This document shows positions 360 through 5,297 of a stretch of DNA of 5,297 nucleotides, one piece after another. Numbering within the stretch: the first letter of the stretch is position 1; every line of letters starts with the position of its first letter. Made by a program: the position numbers and the translations under genes. Source of the DNA: a virus (taxonomy: Duplodnaviria > Heunggongvirae > Uroviricota > Caudoviricetes); the IMG/VR virus record IMGVR_UViG_2675903562_000006; one strand, 5' to 3'. The notes below the pieces were generated by a model. The model saw only the letters and a list, made by a program, of their open reading frames with translations, did not search any database and was not told the origin of the DNA.

Positions 360-563
360 TTAGCTGTTAGCCAAAGCGTCTTTTAACATCGCCACAAGGT
401 TTACTTCAGGCTTTTCCATTTTGGCGCGTTTGGGGCGGATAATAATTCGACCGTCAGCCAACATCTTTTTGCATGTATTAAGAGGGATACCTGTTATCTC
501 TGCATATTTCTGCAGGGATACATAGGGGGCATTCACATTGATATTGATGGTTATACCTGACAT
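360..563 (-). CDS. Small HTH DNA-binding protein, Cox/Apl/AlpA-like excisionase-regulator (67 aa)
   Basis: Strong AGGAGG Shine-Dalgarno 8 nt upstream of the ATG on the minus strand. The segment PYVSLQKYAEITGIPLNTCKKMLADGRIIIR resembles, from memory, the HTH region of P2 Cox (PYQEFAKLIGKSTGAVRRMIDKGKLPVI). Position matches the early operon of a P2/186-type switch. Confidence 0.7.
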   Translation of the reverse strand: MSGITININVNAPYVSLQKYAEITGIPLNTCKKMLADGRIIIRPKRAKMEKPEVNLVAMLKDALANS

Positions 564-579
564 CCCACTAGCCTCCTGA

Positions 580-786
580 TCAGGAAGATTTGTTTTGTTC
601 TTTCTGGGTTAGCTCTAGGCCGCGAAGGAAGATCATGCGCGCCATGTTAGAGGATGAGCGTTGTTCTTTAGCTGCCATTTCATCAATGACGGCTCGCTCC
701 TCGAGGGACAGCCGAAGTGCCAGTCTTGGACCTGTGGCGGTGTTACGCGGAATGCGTGATCTGGTATCGTGAAGAACTTGTTTCAT
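580..786 (-). CDS. Ribbon-helix-helix (CopG/MobC-like) DNA-binding protein, 68 aa; possible Cro-like regulator
   Basis: RLALRLSLEERAVIDEMAAKEQRSSSNMARMIFLRGL fits an RHH pattern (basic beta-strand followed by two helices). Coding-like codon use, while the antisense ORF 590-772 is Arg/Ser-rich junk. An in-frame stop at 802-804 fixes the start at 786. No Shine-Dalgarno, so possibly a leaderless or short-leader mRNA. Confidence 0.6.
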   Translation of the reverse strand: MKQVLHDTRSRIPRNTATGPRLALRLSLEERAVIDEMAAKEQRSSSNMARMIFLRGLELTQKEQNKSS

Positions 787-862: not shown

Positions 863-1267
863 ATGAAAAATGATATTGGTCAGCGGTTGCGTGAGGAAAG
901 GGAAAGATTGGGACTTAGTCAAGTTGCCATGAGCGACATTGGTGGAGTCAAAAAGCTAACTCAGCTTAGATATGAGAAAGGAGATAGCTTTCCTGATGCT
1001 GCGTATTTGGCAGCGCTGTCTCGTTTTGGCCTTGATGTTCAGTATGTTGTGTTGGGAATTCACTCACCTGAAACTTATAACGATGATGAGCAGGAGTTGA
1101 TTACTCGCTTTCGAGCAGCTTCGTTAGATGTGAAAAACGCGGTGATTGGGGCTTTAAAAGGTGCGATCAGTGAAAAGGAAACTCAGCCATCAGGACGTGA
1201 GTTAAATATTTCTGGTGGTAATAACCGTATCGCTGGTCGTGACTATAACGAAACTAAGGGTAGGTGA
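863..1267 (+). CDS. XRE-family (Cro/C1-type) HTH transcriptional regulator, 134 aa; candidate immunity repressor
   Basis: IGQRLREERERLGLSQVAMSDIGGVKKLTQLRYEKGDSFPDAAYLAALSRFGLDVQYVVLG is a typical HTH_3/XRE domain near the N-terminus. AAGG Shine-Dalgarno 8 nt before ATG 863. The ORF track starts at 788, but that adds 25 aa with no Shine-Dalgarno and overlaps the control region. No S24 peptidase domain in the C-terminal tail. Confidence 0.7.
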   Translation: MKNDIGQRLREERERLGLSQVAMSDIGGVKKLTQLRYEKGDSFPDAAYLAALSRFGLDVQYVVLGIHSPETYNDDEQELITRFRAASLDVKNAVIGALKGAISEKETQPSGRELNISGGNNRIAGRDYNETKGR

Positions 1268-1282: not shown

Positions 1283-1933
1283 ATGGCCGTCAACTCAAAC
1301 GGTTCAAACAATCGCGTTGCTGGGCGTGATTTTCACGAAAAGAATATTCAGATAGAGCGATATGATGGTTCTCATACCGTCAATATCGCAATCCCTTCGA
1401 ATAATGATGATGACGATCGCCCTTTGCTTAAGGCTCAGCGTAAGGAGCTAAATAGCTTGGTTGCTGCTATTGCAGAAGCTAGCAATACTGAAGCGTTTAT
1501 TATTTGGCAAAAAGTACATGCGGAGATTGGTGTAGCTGGTATTGATGATATGACAGTAAATCAATATAAAACAGCGGAGAGTTTTCTGCATGCAATGCTT
1601 GAGCGATGTAAAGATCATGATGCCTGTAAGGCTCTTGTAAGTTTATTACTACGTAACAGTGAAGACTGTGGACTTCGACAAAAACTTCTGCGGTATTGCC
1701 ATATCAATTTCGGTACAGGACGTTTAAACGATCTTACTCGTTCTCAGTTACAGTCTGCATTGTCGTGGTTAGAGCAACAATCGGCATCAAGCCACACAGA
1801 GAGTTCGACCTTACCAGAAGTCCGACTTCGTGCTTCAGAATTAATCCGACTTTATCCAAAAGAAATAATATTCTTTATCTGCGTAGGGGTTTTGGTAGGC
1901 GGTGTCATTTCTAGGGCGTTTTTTAATTTGTAA
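1283..1933 (+). CDS. Hypothetical tail-anchored membrane protein (216 aa, single C-terminal TM helix)
   Basis: GGAGG Shine-Dalgarno at 1274-1278. The N-terminal ~190 aa are hydrophilic and the C-terminus IIFFICVGVLVGGVISRAFF is one hydrophobic helix. The N-terminus carries the NNRVAGRDFHE motif also found at the end of the upstream regulator. No catalytic motif recognised. Confidence 0.65.
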   Translation: MAVNSNGSNNRVAGRDFHEKNIQIERYDGSHTVNIAIPSNNDDDDRPLLKAQRKELNSLVAAIAEASNTEAFIIWQKVHAEIGVAGIDDMTVNQYKTAESFLHAMLERCKDHDACKALVSLLLRNSEDCGLRQKLLRYCHINFGTGRLNDLTRSQLQSALSWLEQQSASSHTESSTLPEVRLRASELIRLYPKEIIFFICVGVLVGGVISRAFFNL

Positions 1934-1962
1934 TCTTACTTGAGCTAAATTGAGGTAATGAT

Positions 1963-2310
1963 ATGAAAGTAAAAAAGGTTCAACTATTAGTTACTTTTTT
2001 ATCTATGTTTTCTTTTTCCGCCGTCGCAATGCCTTTTAAAACTATTGAACGTGAGAGTTTCAATGGGGTATGGCCATTTAATACTGATGAGGTTCAATTA
2101 CAGTGTCTTGATGGTAATCCTTATGTGATGAATTTTGACGATAATAAGTTATATGCACTTACAGGTTTGGCTCGAATAAAAGGTAAAACATTTGGTGCGT
2201 TACCGTTAGATAACAATAATCCATTTTGGCTAGATAATGATGCCGCCCCAGGGTTAAAAAAGAGCCTGGGGGATGTCACTAAGGCTGCATTTGATTTATG
2301 TGATAAGTAA
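1963..2310 (+). CDS. Small secreted/periplasmic protein (115 aa) with Sec signal peptide and two Cys
   Basis: GAGGT Shine-Dalgarno 8 nt upstream. Signal peptide MKVKKVQLLVTFLSMFSFSAVA with an AVA signal-peptidase I site and no lipobox. The precursor has two Cys (residues 48 and 113), compatible with one disulfide. The stop lies 5 nt before the integrase ATG, so the two are probably translationally coupled. Confidence 0.7.
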   Translation: MKVKKVQLLVTFLSMFSFSAVAMPFKTIERESFNGVWPFNTDEVQLQCLDGNPYVMNFDDNKLYALTGLARIKGKTFGALPLDNNNPFWLDNDAAPGLKKSLGDVTKAAFDLCDK

Positions 2311-2315
2311 CTAAA

Positions 2316-3317
2316 ATGTCGGTTCGTAAGATTCCATCAGGTAAATGGCTTTGCGAATGTTATCCCTACGGGGCATCGGGAAAACGCATTCGTAAACAGT
2401 TTGCGACAAAAAGTGAGGCGCTCTCTTATGAGCGCCGTTTAATGAATAGTAGAGTTGGAGACGAGTTTCAAGATGGTTCTGGTCCTCGTCTTTCTGAGTT
2501 GATTGCTCGTTGGTTTGAGATGTACGGTAAAACCTTGTCCTCTGGTGCAGAGCGCAAAGTCAAACTTGAGGCGATTTGTTCCAGGCTGGGAGATCCATTT
2601 GCTTCTCAGTTTGACAAAAATATGTTTGCCACTTATCGGGAAAGAAGGTTATCAGGAGAGTGGAATCCCAAGGGGAAGAAAAAACTTAGTGAAGCAACCG
2701 TTAATCGCGAGCAGTCATATCTACATGCTGTTTTTGCCGAACTGAAGCGCCTTGGGGAGTGGTCTGGTGAAAACCCCCTGACTGGTATTCGCAAGTTTCG
2801 TGAGGAAGAAAAGGAACTGGCGTTTCTGTATGTAGATGAGATTGAACGCCTTCTGATTGCGTGTGATGAGTCACGGAATAAAGATTTGGGGGTTGTTGTC
2901 CGTATTGGGCTTGCGACTGGTGCTCGGTGGAGTGAAGCAGAAGGGTTAAAGCAATCTCAAGTACTGCCCGGTCGAATCACATTTGTTAAAACTAAAGGAA
3001 AGAAGAACCGCACTGTACCGATTTCACCTCAATTGCAGGCTATGCTTCCCAAAAAACGAGGAGCGCTATTTTCACCATGTTATGAGGCTTTTGACGCTGC
3101 AATTAAGAGAGCGAAGATCGAGCTTCCTGATGGGCAATTAACTCATGTGCTACGTCACACGTTTGCCAGTCATTTTATGATGCGGGGCGGAAATATTCTT
3201 GTGTTGCAAAAAATACTGGGGCATAGCGATATAAAAATGACTATGCGTTATGCTCATTTTGCTCCAGGTCATTTAGAGGCTGCTGTTGAATTGAACCCTT
3301 TTGACAATAGAGGGTAA
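2316..3317 (+). CDS. int: Tyrosine site-specific integrase, P2/186 family (333 aa)
   Basis: The C-terminal catalytic region ATGARWSEAEGLK...RITFVKTKGKKNRTVPIS...THVLRHTFASHFMMRGGNILVLQKILGHSDIKMTMRYAHFAP matches, from memory, the P2 Int box I/box II region including the R..H-x-x-R..Y pattern. The N-terminus GKRIRKQFATKSEA resembles P2 Int GKRIRRKFDKKSEA. The gene points at the att fragment, as P2 int does. Confidence 0.9.
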   Translation: MSVRKIPSGKWLCECYPYGASGKRIRKQFATKSEALSYERRLMNSRVGDEFQDGSGPRLSELIARWFEMYGKTLSSGAERKVKLEAICSRLGDPFASQFDKNMFATYRERRLSGEWNPKGKKKLSEATVNREQSYLHAVFAELKRLGEWSGENPLTGIRKFREEEKELAFLYVDEIERLLIACDESRNKDLGVVVRIGLATGARWSEAEGLKQSQVLPGRITFVKTKGKKNRTVPISPQLQAMLPKKRGALFSPCYEAFDAAIKRAKIELPDGQLTHVLRHTFASHFMMRGGNILVLQKILGHSDIKMTMRYAHFAPGHLEAAVELNPFDNRG

Positions 3318-3423: not shown

Positions 3424-3478
3424 TTTAAAATCCCTCGGCGTTCGCGCTGTGCGGGTTCAAGTCCCGCTCCGGGTACCA
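3424..3478 (+). other. Attachment-site core: 3' 55 nt of a tRNA-Leu(UAA) gene (anticodon loop to CCA), not an intact tRNA
   Basis: TTTAAAATCCCTCGGCGTTCGCGCTGTGCGGGTTCAAGTCCCGCTCCGGGTACCA contains the anticodon loop with TAA, a long variable arm, the T-arm GCGGG/TTCAAGT/CCCGC, the acceptor 3' strand, discriminator A and CCA. From memory it matches the 3' part of enterobacterial leuZ. No complementary 5' acceptor strand (G/ACCCGGA) exists upstream, so the gene is truncated at the anticodon loop, which is typical of an att core. Confidence 0.7.
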
Positions 3479-3520
3479 TGGGAAAGACAAGAATAATCAA
3501 AGCAATAAGCAGTGTCGTGA

Positions 3521-3543
3521 AACCACCTACGGGTGGTTTTTTT
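3521..3543 (+). terminator. Rho-independent terminator
   Basis: AACCACC-TACG-GGTGGTT is a 7-bp stem with a 4-nt loop, followed by TTTTTTG. It sits 43 nt after the tRNA 3' end and downstream of int. Confidence 0.6.
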
Positions 3544-3578
3544 GTGCCTGAAATTCACGCCCTGTGCATATCCTGTGC

Positions 3579-4460
3579 TCACGGGGTGCAATGAGCCGCA
3601 ATCTCCAGCCTGGCAATGCCGAATCGAACGTGTCGCCTCCAGCATAGAGAACCAGGCCGCTTTGCCTGTTTTCCGGTACTCTTCCGGGAAGGGTGGCCTG
3701 CTGAGCAAGTTGTAATGCTCTGGCCGCCCTTAGTACAAAGTTGCTTAATTCGTGCAATCACCTCATCTCTGTACTTCTGGTGTCCGCGCATAGCCCTTGG
3801 ATGGGCAATTCTGAAACAGATTGTATTACCTGTTTTGAACTCCCACAGCTTCCCCGGAATGACTGAAGAAGTCTCATAACCGCCCAGCTCAGTAAGCACC
3901 TGTTTAATGATGTAGTCTGTTCTCCGGGCTCCGGATGCAAAGATCATGAAATCAGGCTCAAGGTGTTTAATTTGTACCGCCAGCAGCTTCAGCGAGGCTA
4001 ATATGACTTCCTGCACTTCATTTTGAGGGCGATTGAGAGGGGTCAGTCCGTCGTAATCCCACGCCAGTAGATTGGCATACACGATAGCCTGAGGAGGAAT
4101 ATTAAGCTCCCGGGCCAGCCTGAAATGATATTGCGTGAAGCGGCTACGTGATTTGAGGTTGGTGGTGCCATCATTTTGTACCGGAAGATGTTTCCTGTAA
4201 CGATCTACAGCTTCTTCAACCACCTGCCCGATGGTGACGTCAGGCATAAGTCCCAACACCCGTGATATCGTATTCTTACCATTCAGCGTATTCCAGCCTG
4301 CGGTTTCACGTCTAACCAGCATGATTTTTACCGGTGAATGCCAGTATTCTTCAAACGGCACGGGTAAAAAGACGCCTGAGTATTTATCTTCATTCAGGTT
4401 AAATGACTGGGCGTCAACTTCCTGTAATATCCGTTTGTACGCGTCTAATAGCCTTTCCAT
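3579..4460 (-). CDS. Hypothetical protein, 293 aa, divergent from the downstream integrase; function unknown
   Basis: Long ORF with a protein-like N-terminal ~240 aa. The last ~55 aa are low-complexity and Arg/Ser/Cys/Gly-rich, and overlap GC-rich repeat-bearing DNA. Weak, unverified resemblance to uracil-DNA-glycosylase superfamily motifs (KIMLVRRETAG near the N-terminus, AHPRAMRGH near the C-terminus). No Shine-Dalgarno check was made. Confidence 0.55.
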   Translation of the reverse strand: MERLLDAYKRILQEVDAQSFNLNEDKYSGVFLPVPFEEYWHSPVKIMLVRRETAGWNTLNGKNTISRVLGLMPDVTIGQVVEEAVDRYRKHLPVQNDGTTNLKSRSRFTQYHFRLARELNIPPQAIVYANLLAWDYDGLTPLNRPQNEVQEVILASLKLLAVQIKHLEPDFMIFASGARRTDYIIKQVLTELGGYETSSVIPGKLWEFKTGNTICFRIAHPRAMRGHQKYRDEVIARIKQLCTKGGQSITTCSAGHPSRKSTGKQAKRPGSLCWRRHVRFGIARLEIAAHCTP

Positions 4461-4540
4461 TCTTCAATCCTGCCCCGTAATAAAAACACCTTCAGATATA
4501 TATTATTTTCATGATATCAATCAGATATATGAGGATAAAT

Positions 4541-5297
4541 ATGCAAAAATCCTTCCGATTCACCAATTCATCCATCAAAGCCCTTCCGGCAAACACAGAT
4601 ACCCGATCTACAGAGCTTGAGGTATCCGATACTGAGGTCATTGGCCTCAAATGCCTCTCAGGTCGAACGGGTAACAAACGTTTCCTCCTGCGCTACACAT
4701 TCCACGGTACCAAAAAAAGTATCAGTATTGGCAGATTCCCTGAAATTGATGTGGGGACAGCCCGTCAGATAGCTCGTCGTCACAAGGAGGCGATTGCACT
4801 GGGAAATGACCCTAAGGCAGAACGCGATAATTATCGTGCTATGCCAACGCTTAGTGAGTTTTTTCACCAGACCTATGTTCCGTTCATCAAACGCCATAAA
4901 AAGTCCTGGGATAAGGATGTTCAGCGTTTCACGCAATACATTGAACCTTGTCTGGGGAAGATACGTTACTGTGACCTTCGGGCCCGGGAAATCCAGCAGG
5001 TGCTTTTCGACATGCTTGAGGGTCGTATTCACGGGCAGCAATATGCGCCGTCTACCTGTAACAGAGCCCTTGCTATTCTGAAAACGATGGGGCGTTATGC
5101 GTTGCGACAGGATGTGCTGGAAAAGAATGAAGCCGATAAGATCCCTTTACTGAAAGAGAATAATCAGCGGACGCGCTTTTTTGATGCTGATGAGATCAGG
5201 TGTCAACGCCAAGATTATTGGCCGTTTTTCGCCATTTTTAATGTCCGCTATTGGTCATTAATGTTGTCCGCTTTCCGCCATTTCATCATCACTGATT
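4541..5297 (+). CDS. int: Tyrosine integrase of the P4/DUF4102 (arm-binding N-domain) type, 3'-truncated by the window end
   Basis: GAGGA Shine-Dalgarno before ATG 4541. My translation MQKSFRFTNSSIKALPANTDTRSTELEVSDTEVIGLKCLSGRTGNKRFLLRYTFHGTKKSISIGRFPEIDVGTARQIARRHKEAIALGNDPKAERD has the characteristic N-terminal layout of P4-like and genomic-island integrases. The frame is open to position 5297, which is why it is missing from the ORF track. Confidence 0.8.
   Translation, partial: MQKSFRFTNSSIKALPANTDTRSTELEVSDTEVIGLKCLSGRTGNKRFLLRYTFHGTKKSISIGRFPEIDVGTARQIARRHKEAIALGNDPKAERDNYRAMPTLSEFFHQTYVPFIKRHKKSWDKDVQRFTQYIEPCLGKIRYCDLRAREIQQVLFDMLEGRIHGQQYAPSTCNRALAILKTMGRYALRQDVLEKNEADKIPLLKENNQRTRFFDADEIRCQRQDYWPFFAIFNVRYWSLMLSAFRHFIITD

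Follow-up and report, generated by a model that had tools for sequence, protein, structure and literature searches.

The 5,297-nucleotide stretch of DNA analysed here over its whole length (the window; IMG/VR record IMGVR_UViG_2675903562_000006) represents the integrase end of a P88-like (Xuanwuvirus, Peduoviridae) Escherichia coli prophage. Between the gene for an XRE-family prophage repressor and the P2-type integrase gene (int), it carries about 1 kb with two further open reading frames (ORFs), ORF1 and ORF2. We hold, with moderate confidence, that this segment comprises two unrelated things. ORF1 belongs to the immunity module, where its tail-anchored, Flk_N domain-containing product would be bound to the repressor through a peptide tag that recurs in both proteins. 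ORF2, which encodes a secreted protein of the YebY/DUF2511 type, is a swappable moron in a cargo slot between this module and int.

The last ~17 residues of the repressor, NISGGNNRIAGRDYNE, recur at the N-terminus of ORF1 as VNSNGSNNRVAGRDFHE, with the repressor ending in ...LNISGGNNRIAGRDYNETKGR and ORF1 starting with MAVNSNGSNNRVAGRDFHEKN.... Local alignment of the repressor tail with the ORF1 head yielded a score of 62, compared to 20.8 ± 4.0 for shuffled tails, none of which reached 62 in 5,000 trials. The two DNA copies of the tag are identical at 24 of 34 positions and differ mostly at synonymous sites, which indicates selection at the level of the peptide; a recent conversion of one copy by the other was rejected on the same grounds. 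The region of real interest, composed of the repressor tail and ORF1, reaches upstream to ~1202 and, thus, outside the segment (1283-2310) considered in an earlier note on this DNA. Within the searchable literature, we found no paper describing a tag common to repressor and Flk_N proteins and no described link of amyloid motifs to prophage repressors; mentions of Xuanwuvirus were only passing, and the RefSeq accessions were not found.

The repressor consists of an N-terminal helix-turn-helix (HTH) domain, a conserved helix and the C-terminal tail, in this order. Its homologues, 232 of which have the sequence IGxRLREERERLGLSQ in common, vary in their tails, and this variation is mirrored by the partner protein. 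The enterobacterial tag-bearing repressors of the family end in ...SGxGNR[IV]AGRD[YF]NENKK, and the Flk_N proteins begin with MxVNSxGxxNR[IV]AGRDF[NH]E. Across eight P2-like or Mu-like lineages, the tag variants are matched within pairs, with the motifs NRVAGRD, GD[IV]xGRD, NNVQIG, FHGxVGQxxAG, FNGxxxGQF..IIN, QIAG[GR][ND]IY, QQF[NH]..V..GD and GxNI...GxQ[IV]G. Examples of such pairs (repressor tail and partner head, respectively) are found in the Ralstonia phages YO107_2 (PTGDIFGRDLV and PVGDVAGRDII) and YO077_2 (INGGSNNVQIGSV and ITDGNGNVQIGKV), in a lineage of 30 IMG/VR contigs (FHGAVGQSVAGNVTN...VTFNFGD and FHGDVGQAAAGDINN...ININLAD), in Mu-like phages of Pectobacterium (FNGDISGQFAGNQIIN and FNGTAQGQFSSRDIIN), Gilliamella (EGQIAGGNIY and AEQIAGRDIY) and P. 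aeruginosa (QQFNGPVGTVTSGDVVN and QQFHDRVHQVAAGDIKN), and in the metagenomic contig L141 (GNINIASHGQRGGVQIGYVAGKV and GKNITMHYTTGSGTQVGEVHGKV).

When six pairs were scored against each other, tails and heads of the same tag group (cognate) reached 40-67, as opposed to 14-38 for members of different groups. In the 30-contig IMG/VR lineage (P0171), 27 loci have a full-length head, for which the tail of the upstream gene ranked as the closest match in 26 cases, with best and runner-up scores of 55-67 and 27-36 for one tail subtype and of 36-44 and 22-29 for the other. In Ralstonia phage YO077_2, the two genes are convergent and still have the tag in common, even though its copies lie ~1.5 kb apart, so that the tag copies cannot be explained as an artefact of a shared junction. 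Scans of viral contigs for the tag variants P0215 and P0181 returned no relatives. Serratia sp. PAMC26656 (L007, 4155-4991) has two tandem XRE repressor genes upstream of its Flk_N gene, the second of which carries the tag at both its start (MGSDSKGRHNRIAGND) and its end (SQGDRVAGRVYNENKK), so this prophage may make a doubly tagged repressor.

The two genes are also in fixed genomic linkage. We compared ~110 related loci, drawn from Klebsiella, Serratia and other E. coli, from Genome Taxonomy Database species representatives (contributing 6 loci), from 80 IMG/VR contigs and from the neighbourhoods of ORF2 homologues. In all of them, the Flk_N gene directly follows a repressor gene of this family. 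The arrangement was observed in Klebsiella, Serratia, E. coli, Rosenbergiella, Mixta, Izhakiella and Enterobacter and in the 80 IMG/VR contigs, but also in the Mu-like phages of Pectobacterium, Gilliamella and P. aeruginosa. No Flk_N gene is present in a P88-like E. coli prophage with a tail-less repressor of this family (P0378), in which two cargo genes and int come after the repressor gene. The DNA that separates the Flk_N gene from int, by contrast, is variable in length and contains one to three genes from at least nine unrelated cargo families. Since ORF1 always stands behind the repressor gene while the next gene changes, it is part of the immunity module rather than cargo.

In its AlphaFold2 (AF2) model, ORF1 is disordered at the N-terminus (residues 1-45), followed by a confidently predicted helical core (46-171) and a helix at the end of the chain (192-215). 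It has the hallmarks of a tail-anchored protein, with a single hydrophobic helix at its extreme C-terminus (192-215 of 216 residues) and no signal peptide, and its hydrophobic C-terminus is conserved among homologues. This architecture agrees with the cytoplasmic domain on one C-terminal transmembrane (TM) helix that the earlier note had envisaged. The first 40 residues rank with the best-conserved parts of the protein, and the tag region is near-invariant across 26 homologues, yet it remains unstructured in the monomer model, with predicted local distance difference test (pLDDT) values below 50. This combination fits a segment that folds on pairing.

The fixed linkage, the co-variation of the terminal peptides and the loss of the partner in one relative whose repressor has no tail point to a direct interaction between the two tags. 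ORF1, a cytoplasm-facing protein of the inner membrane, would then be bound to the repressor through the shared peptide. The tags (~17-40 residues) may associate by beta-strand pairing, possibly giving rise to an ordered amyloid-like stack. An effect on part of the repressor pool, through its tethering, titration or switching by the membrane-held ORF1, could tune lysogeny maintenance, immunity or induction. Although we infer both the physical binding of the tags and its regulatory consequence from sequence comparisons, an association of repressor and ORF1 at the membrane by way of their tags appears to be the most likely mechanism.

Several points weigh against this reading. The tail-less negative control consists of one repressor context (P0378) plus P88, and an L108-type sub-lineage displays only a modest similarity between tail and head (z = 3.9, reached by 16 of 5,000 shuffles). 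A comparison of 10 tag peptides with Pfam at E-values of up to 10 returned no match, including to the models for the RHIM and HET-s amyloid motifs. The co-transcription of the repressor gene, ORF1, ORF2 and int in the lysogen is itself putative, being suggested only by their close packing and by the lack of a predicted terminator. As for ORF2, nothing links the fold of its structural relative YebY to phage exclusion, E. coli YebY being associated with copper (PMC8689200). Finally, the co-variation of the two tags could also be explained by a third, lineage-specific factor that reads both of them.

This last possibility deserves attention as an explanation in its own right. The tag may serve as a common address for a phage antirepressor, a protease or chaperone, or another tagged membrane protein, such that the repressor and ORF1 are regulated in parallel. 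We consider this scenario unlikely, but worth keeping in mind. Two loci, L026 (~4300-4708) and L118 (4019-4402), indeed encode an extra small protein downstream of the Flk_N gene, in which the same N-terminal tag is fused to two to three TM segments and Flk_N is absent, and in L141 (2250-2609) the sole tagged partner is a two-TM protein without an Flk_N domain. In addition, among the repressor homologues P0275-P0394, all tag-bearing tails end in a Lys/Arg-rich patch directly after the tag (NENKK, SNKKNK, GAKKKK or VKSKE) that could act as a recognition signal; tail-less repressor relatives end differently. However, a host factor would not be expected to drive lineage-specific co-variation within one host group, and there is no third tag-bearing ORF in the window or its 17-kb E. 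coli context. Moreover, homotypic pairing of identical motifs in adjacent genes has experimental precedent (bioRxiv 10.1101/2024.11.07.622273).

A direct tag-tag interaction may also be taken one step further. It is conceivable, albeit quite improbable in our view, that the tag acts as an amyloid-like, prion-type signal connecting an entire family of temperate-phage repressors, in P2-like and Mu-like phages of Enterobacterales, Pseudomonas, Ralstonia and Gilliamella, with membrane proteins. The Flk_N protein, or other tagged TM proteins in some phages, would sense an envelope or infection cue and either template the repressor tail into an inactive assembly or be restrained by it, so that induction, immunity or abortive infection would be switched by conformational templating and not by proteolysis or a classical antirepressor.

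The precedents for such a mechanism are amyloid-signalling pairs, including fungal HET-S/NWD2, bacterial BASS motifs with Bell and NLR proteins, and Bab/Agp (BASS11), an E. coli prophage defence pair in which a motif common to the adjacent genes mediates amyloid signalling (bioRxiv 10.1101/2024.11.07.622273). The amyloid signalling motifs of fungi and bacteria were discovered by the signature of a motif shared between neighbouring genes, and a phi-Q-phi-G core is common to RHIM, PP and BASS3 (bioRxiv 10.1101/2020.01.06.895854). As in the system described here, a short G/N/Q/V-rich motif is found at one C-terminus and at the neighbour's N-terminus, many motif families co-vary within pairs, one partner is directed to the membrane, and the motif is unstructured in the monomer. 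By eye, the tag variants NNVQIG and GGVQIG hold the phi-Q-phi-G core, and Bab/Agp is, like ORF1 and its repressor, carried by an E. coli prophage (bioRxiv 10.1101/2024.11.07.622273). There are also clear differences. The partners in our case are an HTH phage repressor and a tail-anchored Flk_N protein instead of a Bell pore-former and an NLR/TPR sensor, the motif of the membrane protein is N-terminal rather than C-terminal, and the presumed output is the control of lysogeny instead of abortive infection. Motif sharing was found in eight lineages, which we regard as a resemblance to these pairs and not as membership among them. The phage-type Flk_N proteins P0180 and P0141/P0143/P0152 contain two tandem copies of the tag (e.g., ...NRTAGRNYYEV...NNVAGRDVIHV or AGRDF...IGRDIVNISLP), recalling the two-repeat arrangement of the HET-s prion domain.

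Returning to the proposed division into an immunity module and a separate cargo gene, we asked what occupies the position of ORF2 at other loci. Apart from DUF2511 proteins such as ORF2, the occupants include an acidic DUF8087 protein, a BRCT/WYL-like protein of ~285 aa, a Zn-ribbon-like protein combined with a coiled-coil protein that has a terminal TM segment, a TerB-like/BRCT protein, a 244-aa membrane (TM) protein and a 137-aa secreted protein. The DUF2511 allele is dominant among complete E. coli genomes (~506 vs ~14 with DUF8087). The commonest alternative cargo, the ~285-aa protein (L003 5647-6513, L007 5648-6496, L015 6635-7513), has an N-terminal BRCT domain that scores above the Pfam cut-off (23.9-30.4 bits) and shows weak matches to the WYL-like and PDC-S48 models of PADLOC (E = 1e-3 to 1e-4); its gene may serve in defence or in the sensing of DNA damage. 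Another recurring set (L140 3357-4132; also L074, L089, L094 and L097) comprises the Zn-ribbon-like protein (~117-131 aa), followed by the coiled-coil protein with its C-terminal TM segment (~135-163 aa), and occupies the same slot with or without an Flk_N gene. Among the slot occupants scanned, none confidently matched a PADLOC model. With their fixed position and swapped occupants, which include secreted or membrane proteins and BRCT/WYL-like proteins, these loci resemble the moron and defence hotspots of P2-like phages and the Sie2009/Ltp genes. Within the searchable literature, we found no description of this slot, which in P88-like phages separates the Flk_N gene from int.

These results bear on the idea, put forward in the earlier note, that ORF1 and ORF2 form a single membrane/periplasm module for superinfection exclusion or abortive infection that is expressed together with the repressor. 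Its appeal is evident, given that the genes are tightly packed inside the string from the repressor gene to int, that one product is membrane-held and faces the cytoplasm whereas the other is periplasmic, and that the phage-type DUF2511 clade directly follows an Flk_N gene in every context checked. Gram-positive prophages likewise keep exclusion genes between repressor and int (Sie2009, Ltp). In lambda, the repressor transcript also covers rexA and rexB, one of which encodes a membrane protein; both exclusion and the lysis-lysogeny switch have been reported to involve these genes. They have no sequence or fold relationship to ORF1 or ORF2, and we know of no Rex equivalent of the shared peptide tag. 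However, the pairing is one-way. Flk_N genes are followed by at least nine unrelated alternatives, the same Klebsiella prophage backbone with the same attachment site carries either the DUF2511 gene or the BRCT/WYL-like gene, and ORF1 co-varies with the repressor and not with ORF2. Moreover, neither ORF1 nor ORF2 matches a defence model of PADLOC-DB v2 at E-values of up to 1. A joint module therefore appears very unlikely. The co-occurrence across genomes, which the earlier note had itself named as a check, shows no conserved pairing, and the notion of a conserved two-gene module fails accordingly. Its view of the region upstream of int as a site for cargo was well founded, in that the slot is genuine and ORF2 is one of its occupants. 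For ORF2 alone, a role in exclusion or defence is possible.

The assignment of ORF2 to the DUF2511 family is based on several lines of evidence. The protein passes the Pfam DUF2511 model (PF10709; 28.4 bits vs a cut-off of 21), and the same domain is precomputed on its homologues. A search of the PDB with the ORF2 family profile identified YebY (7n0j, 4.4e-6) and, at 0.09, MlbQ. The structure search suggested in the earlier note gave the same picture. With the AF2 model of ORF2 (pLDDT 73) as a query, the top Foldseek match was YebY (7n0j; probability 1.0, template-modelling scores of 0.63/0.74), followed by MlbQ (6qfp and 2mvo), with later matches representing noise. ORF2 is ~30% identical to YebY, and its residues W37, C48 and C113, which are invariant in 12 ORF2 homologues, align to the corresponding YebY positions, where Trp37 is conserved and C48 and C113 form a disulfide (PMC8689200). 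Its signal peptide (MKVKKVQLLVTFLSMFSFSAVA, followed by MP) has a hydrophobic core and an AxA site, with cleavage predicted between AVA and M, is kept in homologues and shows no lipobox cysteine. The predicted mature protein has 93 aa, including Cys48 and Cys113, and so corresponds to the ~93-aa periplasmic protein with two Cys residues deduced previously.

ORF2 thus keeps the W37 and C48-C113 residues of YebY, which is encoded in the AZY operon of E. coli, has a signal peptide and, in its model, takes up the fold of YebY and of MlbQ, a lipoprotein for lantibiotic self-resistance. E. coli YebY has been linked to copper handling and binds copper weakly, and MlbQ has been proposed to bind a lantibiotic (PMC8689200). 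Unlike YebY, ORF2 is unlinked to copC/copD-type genes and belongs to a small prophage-slot clade of its own. This phage-type clade comprises 18 clusters at 90% identity. Its context was examined in six genera, in each of which it occupied the same prophage slot, directly after the Flk_N gene. A position of certain DUF2511 genes between recombinase and phage repressor genes has previously been noted for Enterobacteriaceae (PMC8689200). The modelled fold of ORF2 is that of small extracytoplasmic binding proteins, and ORF2 is most plausibly a small periplasmic binding protein that may block the entry of superinfecting phages or bind a peptide toxin.

The family of ORF1, too, is catalogued, although the earlier note recognised neither. 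The Flk_N domain (PF27202) is precomputed on 117 of the 120 ORF1 homologues listed, down to 58-60% identity, as well as on neighbouring genes at homologous loci, and the family comprises 136 clusters in a profile search of 1.84 billion representative proteins. Pfam matches of ORF1 to zf-P11 and ELYS were below the cut-offs and disregarded. The eponymous protein, Flk (Fluke/RflH), is an inhibitor of the flagellar secretion switch in Salmonella and E. coli that has, like ORF1, an Flk_N helical domain and a C-terminal anchor and faces the cytoplasm (PMC13344023). This kinship raises the possibility that ORF1 is a phage copy of Flk that alters the flagellar type III secretion switch of the lysogen, leading to a lysogenic conversion of motility. 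Indeed, ORF1 keeps the architecture of Flk, and its residues 37-166 match the NCBIfam Flk model (E = 8.6e-16). However, the match covers the N-terminal domain only and, at 58.1 bits, lies far under the 353-bit cut-off for an Flk equivalog (NCBIfam PRK10715). Host Flk clusters also differ from ORF1 in both N-terminus and length. Flk has 333 aa, compared to ~210 aa for the phage protein, and the host proteins of the 136-cluster family (MQPxSG..., 300-430 aa) lack the repressor-like N-terminal tag, whereas phage-type Flk_N proteins (180-290 aa) bear diverse short G/N/Q/V-rich N-terminal motifs. Furthermore, the phage gene resides in prophage immunity modules and is abundant in prophages of Klebsiella and Raoultella. 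Both genera are classically non-flagellate, which makes a flagellar role unlikely, and the invariable coupling to the repressor gene points to a phage-internal one. On these grounds, we regard a function in motility as highly improbable. Hardly credible, finally, is the notion that the similarity of tail and head is a functionless relic of a duplication or of a recombination junction between modules, because, although the Enterobacterales copies lie ~60-80 nucleotides apart at a gene boundary and the second XRE gene of Serratia L007 has the motif at both ends, the DNA copies differ mostly at synonymous sites, the tag persists, and changes in concert, across Enterobacterales, Ralstonia, Pseudomonas and Gilliamella, even between distant convergent genes, and it lies in one of the most conserved parts of ORF1.

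The features of the prophage are compiled in Table 1. The sequence up to position 3547 is 97% identical to Escherichia phage 520873, and an O6:H16 E. coli chromosome is identical to positions 1283-2310. The ORF1-ORF2 pair is present in 511 of 5,426 complete E. coli genomes, nearly all at ≥95% identity, and this occurrence, together with the matches to phrog families, shows that the two are not chance ORFs.

Table 1. Features of the prophage in the window (positions in nucleotides of the window).
Feature	Position	Strand	Evidence or remark
Cox-like excisionase/repressor gene	360-563	-	phrog_575 at 1.2e-27; divergent early lytic gene
Arc-like ribbon-helix-helix gene	580-786	-	phrog_3431 at 1e-28; divergent early lytic gene
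XRE-family prophage repressor, 134 aa	863-1267	+	phrog_8 at 2.5e-14; weak Pfam HTH_31/HTH_3 matches, below curated cut-offs
Repressor C-terminal tag, LNISGGNNRIAGRDYNE then TKGR	1202-1264	+	matches ORF1 head
ORF1, tail-anchored Flk_N-domain protein, 216 aa	1283-1933	+	phrog_5825 at 4e-103
ORF1 N-terminal tag region, VNSNGSNNRVAGRDFHE, then conserved IQIERYDGSHTVNIAIP stretch	1289-1402	+	matches repressor tail
Flk_N helical domain, ORF1 residues 46-171	1418-1795	+	AF2 model
ORF1 C-terminal transmembrane anchor, residues 192-215	1856-1927	+	AF2 helix; hydrophobic C-terminus kept in homologues
ORF2, secreted YebY/DUF2511 protein, 115 aa	1963-2310	+	phrog_2950 at 9e-40; signal peptide 1963-2028
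P2-type tyrosine integrase (int)	2316-3317	+	Pfam Int_N 5e-32, Phage_integrase 2.5e-22
Prophage attachment-site remnant at prophage end	3424-3553	.	similarity to coliphage ends and attP

The basic layout described in the earlier note, with two tightly packed ORFs between an XRE repressor gene and a P2-type int, was confirmed in its coordinates and sizes. In P88, the type phage of the genus, C is directly followed by int, which corresponds to the plain P2-like arrangement, so the prophage in the window carries extra genes within this string, as had been supposed. The expression signals are likewise visible in the sequence as reported. The ATG of ORF1 is preceded by a strong Shine-Dalgarno sequence (GGGAGG, 1273-1278) and that of ORF2 by a weaker one (GAGG, 1952-1955), whereas int starts 5 nucleotides past the ORF2 stop codon with no recognisable Shine-Dalgarno sequence upstream. 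A simple consensus scan predicted no terminator on the + strand between 863 and 3317; the single promoter-like match on this strand within the stretch, at 2210-2238, is weak (9/12), and the scan returned overall no more sites than in shuffled sequence. As to base composition, the stretch had been described as AT-richer than its surroundings. This holds clearly for ORF2 (GC content 0.356) alone, the values for ORF1, the repressor gene and int being 0.413, 0.440 and 0.451, respectively. We also considered a programmed readthrough or frameshift that fuses the repressor to ORF1, which is in the same frame in the window. This possibility was rejected, because the repressor stop codon (1265-1267) is the first of three consecutive in-frame stops (TGA TAG TAG, 1265-1273) and the spacers in relatives measure 8, 9, 11, 13, 15 or 18 nucleotides, so that the relative frame of the two genes is not conserved.

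The attachment-site remnant is 96% identical to the ends of other coliphage records and 88% identical to the annotated attP of mEp390. By eye, it resembles the 3' part of a tRNA gene; no complete tRNA was called in the window by ARAGORN or Rfam. Beyond it (3579-5297) lies a second, different integrated element. Its minus strand bears a 293-aa ORF (3579-4460; phrog_29550 at E = 1e-209, without a Pfam match), and a P4-type integrase, of which the N-terminal part is present, starts near 4541. The annotation of the matching chromosome gives this integrase as truncated and followed by the IS21-like element ISEc62. Two annotations merit comment. The 45-aa RefSeq 'hypothetical protein' WP_001673482.1 (635-772, +) is situated wholly within the Arc-like gene on the opposite strand and is, therefore, probably a spurious call. 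In the deposited record of Escherichia phage 520873 (L001, NC_049344.1, 5264-7306), ORF1 and ORF2 are unannotated and int is given as two coding sequences; tblastn recovered ORF1 and ORF2 in three pieces each, which suggests frameshift errors or decay in this record.

About one in ten complete E. coli genomes carries the ORF1-ORF2 pair directly upstream of int, and the module likewise occurs frequently in prophages of Klebsiella and other Enterobacterales. The prophage YebY clade provides a second, non-copper context for the DUF2511 fold, and the slot between module and int constitutes a newly delimited place in which to search for lysogenic-conversion and defence genes. In addition, the signature of a gene whose tail matches the head of its neighbour is simple enough to be used for mining. 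The lysogeny of P2-like phages is, by textbook accounts, largely unresponsive to SOS induction, and for many of them the exit from lysogeny is poorly understood. Binding through the tag, if it indeed occurs, would place the repressor of these phages under the control of a membrane-anchored partner, a mode of regulation that, to our knowledge, has not been described for any model phage. Should the binding moreover be amyloid-like, amyloid signalling would no longer be confined to cell-death defence systems but reach into the central decision made by temperate phages. Collectively, our findings suggest that a fixed membrane partner copying the repressor tail represents an undescribed way of controlling phage dormancy.

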